From Eledone cirrhosa (Eukaryota), in NCBI GenBank assembly GCA_964016885.1, contig OZ024751.1:12772001-12836000 (forward strand): a stretch of DNA of 64,000 nucleotides. Reading direction: 5' to 3'. Every line of letters starts with the position of its first letter. Positions within the stretch are counted from its first letter, which is position 1. The notes beneath the pieces were generated by a model. That model was not told the DNA's origin. It worked only from the letters and a program-made list of their open reading frames with translations, and made no database searches. This document shows, in pieces, positions 51,310 to 51,641 of this stretch. A program made the translations under genes and the position numbers.

Positions 51310-51392
51310 GTATATATATATATACATATGTCCCAAGGCTCTGATACCATCAACACTATAAACACAGAGCTGGCATATCTAAGAACTGACTA

Positions 51393-51448
51393 ACTGCCTG
51401 ATGAGGTCATAGCCATTTAATGGCTATCATCGAAATATATATAGCAGT
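51393..51448 (+). ncRNA. Minimal type I hammerhead ribozyme
   Basis: ACTGC-CTGATGA-GGTCATAGCCAT-tta-ATGGCTATCATC-GAAA-tatata-TA-GCAGT; perfect stem I, 11/12-bp stem II, palindromic stem III, AUA triplet. Lies in a TA-flanked insert 51329-51494. Confidence 0.85.
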
Positions 51449-51641
51449 AAATAAAGGATTATGAGTTCATGCAATTGACTTATATTTCGTCAGTATATAT
51501 ATATATATATATATATTTATTTCCTTGATCATGCTTTATTTTTATTTTTATTTTTAATTTCATTCGCACCGTTTCCTTTCGCTATATGTCTCTCCACCAC
51601 TCCCCTACACACCCTTTGAACTCTGTTCCCACACACTTCTC

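Follow-up and report, generated by a model that had tools for sequence, protein, structure and literature searches.

A type I hammerhead motif with a TA-palindromic helix III in a repeated, probably Penelope-like element of Eledone cirrhosa

Introduction

Animal genomes hold thousands of hammerhead motifs (PMC4209133), and the motif described here, at positions 51393-51448, adds one example to a described class. A palindromic helix III is the norm in this class (PMC4209133, PMC6765202). For hammerheads with a small palindromic helix III, it was reported that the monomer does not cleave and that cleavage of the dimer is weak (PMC4209133). In the Penelope-like retroelements, the targeting of TA, 5' truncation and inverted copies are all known, and the TA targeting has hypothetically been ascribed to the linker of the endonuclease (PMC8557442). 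The element of the anole (PAc, Poseidon of Anolis carolinensis) carries a hammerhead that cuts only with the protein of the element and that is dispensable for insertion, while reverse transcription begins downstream of it (PMC11167929). The in vivo role of the Penelope-type hammerheads is still open (PMC7761336, PMC8557442). The main text of another paper, PMC13282606, makes no mention of ribozymes.

The window, i.e. the whole stretch of 64,000 nucleotides that was analysed, is rich in repeats. TA runs take up 16% of its bases and there is no evident gene. Its 94 stop-to-stop frames of at least 120 aa were inspected by eye; they look like repeat translations, and none of them resembles a reverse transcriptase or GIY-YIG frame. 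The motif 51393-51448 is a type I hammerhead in one copy of a highly repeated element. This element is likely to belong to the TA-targeting Penelope-like retroelements, of which the piece at hand would be the 5'-truncated 3' end (a pseudo-LTR piece), and the lone copy is predicted to be a weak or silent passenger. The putative Penelope membership is derived from the anatomy of the piece.

Results

The hammerhead motif

The motif on the + strand (51393-51448) displays the type I topology, with helices II and III closed and helix I open-ended, and its core (CUGANGA ... GAAA ... U16.1-H17) is complete. The 5' strand of helix I (ACTGC, 51393-51397), recovered by both descriptor and folding, is followed by the intact catalytic core C3-A9 (CTGATGA, 51398-51404). 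The helix II region comprises 27 nt (51405-51431) with G10.1-C11.1 at the base, and leads to the core residues G12-A13-A14-A15.1 (GAAA, 51432-51435). Directly 3' of GAAA, TATATATA is found (51436-43, +). According to the descriptor, the helix III strand is the palindrome ATATATAT, which runs from A15.1 (51435) to U16.1 (51442) and can form 2 bp and a 4-nt loop as a monomer or 8 bp as a dimer. The descriptor also assigns H17 to the A at 51443, giving the triplet AUA, and the cut is predicted 3' of this base. The 3' strand of helix I (GCAGT, 51444-51448; again descriptor and folding) has an AATAAA hexamer right behind it (51450-51455).

This layout bears out the initial annotation, which had reported a minimal, dimer-type hammerhead at this site. 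The cut that it proposed after 51443 is also correctly placed, as H17 (A51443) follows U16.1 at 51442 in the predicted site. Its 12-bp stem II holds for the 12 positions but not for the pairs: 10 are Watson-Crick pairs, 1 is a G.U and pair 4 (51408/51428) is a C.C mismatch.

When a strict type I descriptor was applied to the window, two matches were obtained, 51393-51448 (+) and 43419-43377 (-). A fully palindromic helix III is present only in the former. In 300 shuffled windows, with the shuffling done in 200-nt blocks, the same descriptor gave a mean of 0.047 matches and a maximum of 1, and a match equal in quality to 51393-51448 was present in none of the 300. The folding energy of 51380-51494 amounts to -29.8 kcal/mol, which was equalled by 2 of 500 shuffles.

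The motif is filed under no Rfam hammerhead family. Two narrow Rfam scans of the motif region returned no such family at E up to 10, and for the whole window the hammerhead families are absent among the 150 of 425 matches listed. Exact-pattern scans for the family to which the motif belongs (family A, see below) returned 2 viral loci, 0 viral loci in a second scan and 6 prokaryote loci. Each of these 8 loci matches only 18-22 nt, and they were dismissed as chance.

The island and its neighbourhood

The hammerhead is located in a non-coding island of 165 nt (family A, 51329-51493, +), which was delimited by its sequence and by its repetition in sequencing run X1. The island is situated between two TA tracts: an interrupted (TA)n tract upstream (51279-51328), the presumed target, and a (TA)n tract downstream (51494-51516). 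The frames that begin with the ATGs at 51401, 51420 and 51461 run into a stop within 15 codons, and the one from 51469 alone stays open as far as the end of the island. Branch-point-like words occur at 51386 and 51390. In the 64-kb window there is no second copy of 51329-51493.

The island ends 50 nt past the predicted cut. Folding places a hairpin (51456-88) and the terminal strand of a distal helix (51489-94) in the stretch 51456-51494 (+). The 5' strand of this predicted helix, the partner of the six bases at the 3' end of the island, lies just upstream of helix I (51385-51390, +), and the helix closes a junction with the 3' hairpin. Its pair probabilities are 0.8-1.0 in four folding contexts.

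On the left, the island is preceded by a family B-like 3' fragment (51109-51278, +) that lacks a hammerhead and has an inverted 5' part. The fragment agrees at 71% over 156 nt with 13523-13380, and its inverted arms are found at 51102-147 and 51149-194. On the right follows the island of another repeated, abundant hammerhead family (51517-51763, +), with helix III ACGT and triplet GUC. Its minimal hammerhead (51641-51673, +) contains a C at core position 4, unlike nearly all of the depth of this second family, which has T. A heterodimer of 51393-51448 with this neighbour at 51644 was rejected, because helix III differs and the core of the neighbour is mutated.

Further repeats with related features are dispersed over the window. 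An inverted repeat of 500 nt (43230-43725, 91%) contains an outward-pointing hammerhead core in each arm, and the core on the - strand is nearly intact. Together with the inverted structure at 51102-51194 it shows a mark of the Penelope type, which in the window is confined to neighbouring families. Another hammerhead family occurs at 18158-18232 (+) and 10904-10971 (-), with a helix I of 6-9 bp, a helix II region of 36 nt without G10.1-C11.1, a 3-bp helix III and a GUA triplet. The TA-flanked islands at 9923-10297, 10660-10845, 14152-14552 and 50637-50821 are mostly long inverted repeats, several of them of one family, and they are likely inverted 5' truncations. A single family of short dispersed repeats has copies at 39810-40427, 46539-46992, 52103-52294 and 57658-57996, and these are TA-bounded too.

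Family A in sequencing runs

Four of the 24 listed runs were compared with 51329-51763 at 80% likeness, leaving out runs X9-X20 with their small word shares. Family A is highly repeated and homogeneous. In run X1, 2151 contig pieces were placed on 51329-51763, of which 654 match at 99% or more and 770 at 95-99% (1424 at 95% or more). The summed depth over the island reaches 1e5-5e5, versus 7-18 for 8 listed pieces; this depth is no copy number, and X1, for which the type of library is unrecorded, is possibly the window's own sample. Raw reads of run X21, in a sample of about 1 in 100 of the run, gave 0 on 51329-51763.

Only two sites of the island (51361 and 51418) vary at 5% or more in run X1, versus 17 in the neighbouring island. 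Position 51361 varies at about 10%. At 51418, in loop 2, nearly all of the depth has C, and the T of the window copy is private. No variant at 5% or more is present in the catalytic core across the family A contigs. Given so few variant sites, the C.C mismatch, like the core and the helices, can be regarded as a trait of family A. Such homogeneity is compatible both with a young family and with selection.

Contigs of runs X5 and X6 extend 47 and 136 nt past 51329, which suggests a 5' truncation of the copy in the window. The match of another X6 contig is restricted to 51390-51447, i.e. the footprint of the hammerhead, with 6 other letters and 4 gap letters and with different flanks on either side. 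In contigs of X1 and X5, other sequence is joined at 51439, inside helix III and five bases before the cut. The joined sequence has no counterpart in the window, where 2 two-mismatch matches were found versus 4.5 expected.

Relation to family B

Two family B motifs are present on the - strand. The first (13523-13582) possesses a homologous helix II with the C.C at pair 4, and it contains GAAATATATA. However, the same arrangement that had initially been ascribed to this copy is broken, with position 16.1 a C instead of U; the base of its helix II consists of a G.U and then a U.U. The second copy (4040-4092) has kept the 5' half of the core and helix II but lost GAAA and helix III. Both copies are thus broken.

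The relation between the two families, which had been proposed as well, is corroborated by the alignment. Helix II of 51393-51448 aligns in register with the family B motifs at 13574(-) and 4084(-), and the C.C at pair 4 is common to all three. Between A and B, both sides have changed in 5 of the 12 pairs of helix II, a value as high as in 1 of 500 shuffles, with the reservation that this covariation is based on three sequences (two lineages) and on a structure taken from those same sequences. The slid controls gave 0-2 pairs. The alignment thus argues for an A-B homology stronger than the shared TA run alone would indicate. ATATATA is kept between the families, whereas helices I and II have changed.

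Folding and likely activity

In the folding model, helix I (5 bp) is predicted with a probability of about 0.9-1.0, and 11 of the 12 positions of helix II are paired. The 2-bp helix III of the monomer has a probability of 0.01. A competing fold, in which 51399-404 pairs with 51427-32, reaches about 0.5, versus 0.39 for the base of helix II. The penalty relative to the ensemble is 4.9 kcal/mol for the active monomer and 5.3-5.4 kcal/mol for the tandem dimer, i.e. the model does not favour the dimer over the monomer. As the comparison motifs lie 4.9 and 6.7 kcal/mol above their ensembles, the energy penalty of 51393-51448 alone proves little. The self-duplex of (UA)4 is worth only -3.2 kcal/mol. 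The triplet AUA is a slow one, up to orders of magnitude below GUC and GUA (PMC3138052).

The initial annotation had called the hammerhead clean and the best candidate for an active ribozyme in the window. It is indeed the best formal match. Clean and active are nevertheless both too strong, since pairing between the core strand and the 3' side of helix II is more probable than a closed base of this helix, and in view of the slow triplet, the weak self-duplex and the absence of a second copy from the window. For want of a partner copy, and given the slow AUA and the sequestration of the core in the competing fold, activity of the window copy is doubtful; poor cleavage is predicted for it in isolation.

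Helix III and the TA target

It had also been suggested that the TA sequence of helix III is relevant to the TA target. This is not supported: a palindrome is the published norm, and other families in TA islands have another helix III. Three other hammerhead families of the window reside in TA-bounded islands, with helix III ACGT (51644), AGAACT (43415/43535) and ACCT(C/T)TGGT (18167, 10965), which shows that residence in TA needs no TA helix III. The TA sequence can be understood from the requirement for a palindrome that starts with A and ends with U, to which (AU)4 is one solution.

A metagenome scan covering 4 of 64 parts gave 115 loci with the core-and-TA pattern, none of which resembles the island 51329-51493. 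Seven of the 115 passed a relaxed helix test; five of them, with a helix II of 3-4 pairs and an AT-rich helix I, were set aside. The remaining two loci, L071:390-445 (-) and L108, belong to one family and are proper hammerheads on metagenome contigs, with ATATATAT and H17 = A; they differ from 51393-51448 in helices I and II and have an unpaired base between 9 and 10.1. Within the flanks of this one family (up to 400 nt on each side) there is no other TA run.

Trans-cleavage of host (UA)n RNAs was also considered and is unsupported; the form (AT)n-H-GCAG occurs at 2 other sites of the window. Among the titles and abstract openings listed by literature searches, none concerns a hammerhead helix III that matches its own target microsatellite. 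A TA helix III or the C.C mismatch may already be contained in the supplementary alignments of PMC4209133.

Discussion

Proposed origin and alternatives

In the preferred reading, which draws on published Penelope-like elements, a tandem master Penelope-like element would be transcribed, and the ATATATAT strands of two hammerheads would join in a shared helix III of 8 bp. Cleavage would then occur after A51443, probably aided by a protein that the element encodes. By analogy with PAc, reverse transcription would begin some 50 nt 3' of this site, within the predicted 3' hairpin or beyond it, and this start point would set the 3' end at 51493. An early stop of reverse transcription would leave short 3' ends in TA tracts, and 51329-51493 would be one of these. 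The TA target itself would be chosen by the endonuclease of the element and not by the ribozyme.

The reading that a hammerhead-like pattern was assembled by chance in AT-rich, repeat-rich DNA might appeal to the TA runs (16% of the window), to the presence of GAAATATATATA at 3 sites and to the lack of an Rfam hammerhead match. However, an equally good motif was found in 0 of 300 shuffles, only 2 of the 115 metagenome loci sharing the core-and-TA pattern have comparable helices, and helix II covaries with family B. By the shuffles and the covariation this reading is refuted in practice, and its probability is close to nil. More is to be said for a non-autonomous non-LTR retrozyme, of which the island would be a solo unit or a truncated one; its short non-coding RNA would be cut by the hammerhead and circularised, and a Penelope-like enzyme would reinsert it. 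The island does not code for protein, is structured (its folding energy is equalled by 2 of 500 shuffles), very abundant and homogeneous; moreover, solo retrozyme monomers exist, and Penelope pseudo-LTRs are the proposed origin of retrozymes (bioRxiv 10.64898/2026.07.22.740005). Nonetheless, this alternative is unlikely. The island shows no tandem arrangement, there is no second copy in 64 kb, and helix II, with its 12 pairs, departs from the canonical form, which has 4 bp and engages in loop-loop contacts (PMC4209133). Among the joints listed, the sole repeat-like one is that of an X1 contig, leading from 51360 to 51329 via 6 TA letters.

Target mimicry would assign a direct role to helix III: the 5' product, ending in AUAUAUAUA, would anneal to nicked (TA)n and prime reverse transcription, with helix III as the guide. 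The last nine bases of such a product would alternate between A and U, and ATATATA is constant between families A and B despite the changed helices I and II. Telomeric Penelope-like elements pair with their target via repeats beside the hammerhead (PMC6431247), and the loose end at 51439 in X1 and X5 is a junction near the cut site. The window copy, however, extends 50 nt beyond the cut and ends at 51493, and the summed depth of X1 does not collapse at 51443 (494,000 to 431,000, contigs being a weak test). The three other families reside in TA-bounded islands with a non-TA helix III, and L071/L108 (one family) have ATATATAT without TA in the flanks, up to 400 nt on each side. A cyclic-phosphate end would be no hindrance to a template, but anole elements with a mutated hammerhead show normal insertion in vitro (PMC11167929). 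On balance, target mimicry is very improbable. The probability is just as small for a broader scenario, in which a TA-targeting lineage with helix III as guide would be the counterpart of Terminon at internal microsatellites, and in which the core-sequestering fold would silence solo copies until the protein of the element binds the long helix II at the conserved C.C. If the (UA)4 end does guide insertion, the ribozymes would gain a function and the TA targeting would be explained.

The modest value of family A, which is presumably young and is abundant, is that of test material for the role of the Penelope-type hammerheads. Three details of the family can be checked: the C.C kept amid covarying pairs, the core-sequestering fold, and the predicted helix between the 3' end and the region of helix I.

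Comparison with known systems

The closest counterparts are the Penelope-like hammerheads from Drosophila, rotifers, shrimps and mosquitoes described by Cervera and De la Pena in 2014 (PMC4209133). These share the type I topology and the intact core with 51393-51448, as well as a long helix II, a helix I of 4-5 bp (5 bp here) and G10.1-C11.1. The palindromic 15.2-16.2 plus loop 3 is likewise found in both, and the described motifs are mostly single and dispersed. The differences concern helices II and III. Helix II of 51393-51448 has 12 pairs with the conserved C.C, versus 7-8 pairs as typical of the published hammerheads, and the unpaired base between 9 and 10.1 that is typical of them is absent in its best pairing. 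Unlike the variants described there, 51393-51448 has the triplet AUA and a pure (AU)4 helix III, and it is known from the repeat alone. It also departs from the strict min-HHR consensus of PMC4209133, which has that unpaired base and no loop 3: the best pairing of 51393-51448 begins directly with G51405, and its helix III carries a loop 3 of 4 nt.

PAc (PMC11167929) likewise has a hammerhead shortly upstream of the 3' end and an AT-rich target. In PAc, the ORF starts at helix II and protein-assisted activity was measured, whereas 51393-51448 is known from sequence alone. The animal non-LTR retrozymes (PMC7229834; bioRxiv 10.64898/2026.07.22.740005) are also short non-coding repeats with a type I hammerhead and a weak palindromic helix III. 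The family A copy differs from them in that it is not in tandem and does not have the canonical 4-bp helix II.

A final comparison can be made with the 3' ends of Terminon/Athena (PMC6431247), where a hammerhead is likewise located beside sequence complementary to the target repeat. In these elements, the 3' end carries the telomeric repeat, which thus lies downstream of the hammerhead. In 51393-51448, by contrast, the TA run is situated inside helix III and upstream of the cut, and is then followed by 50 nt of the element.
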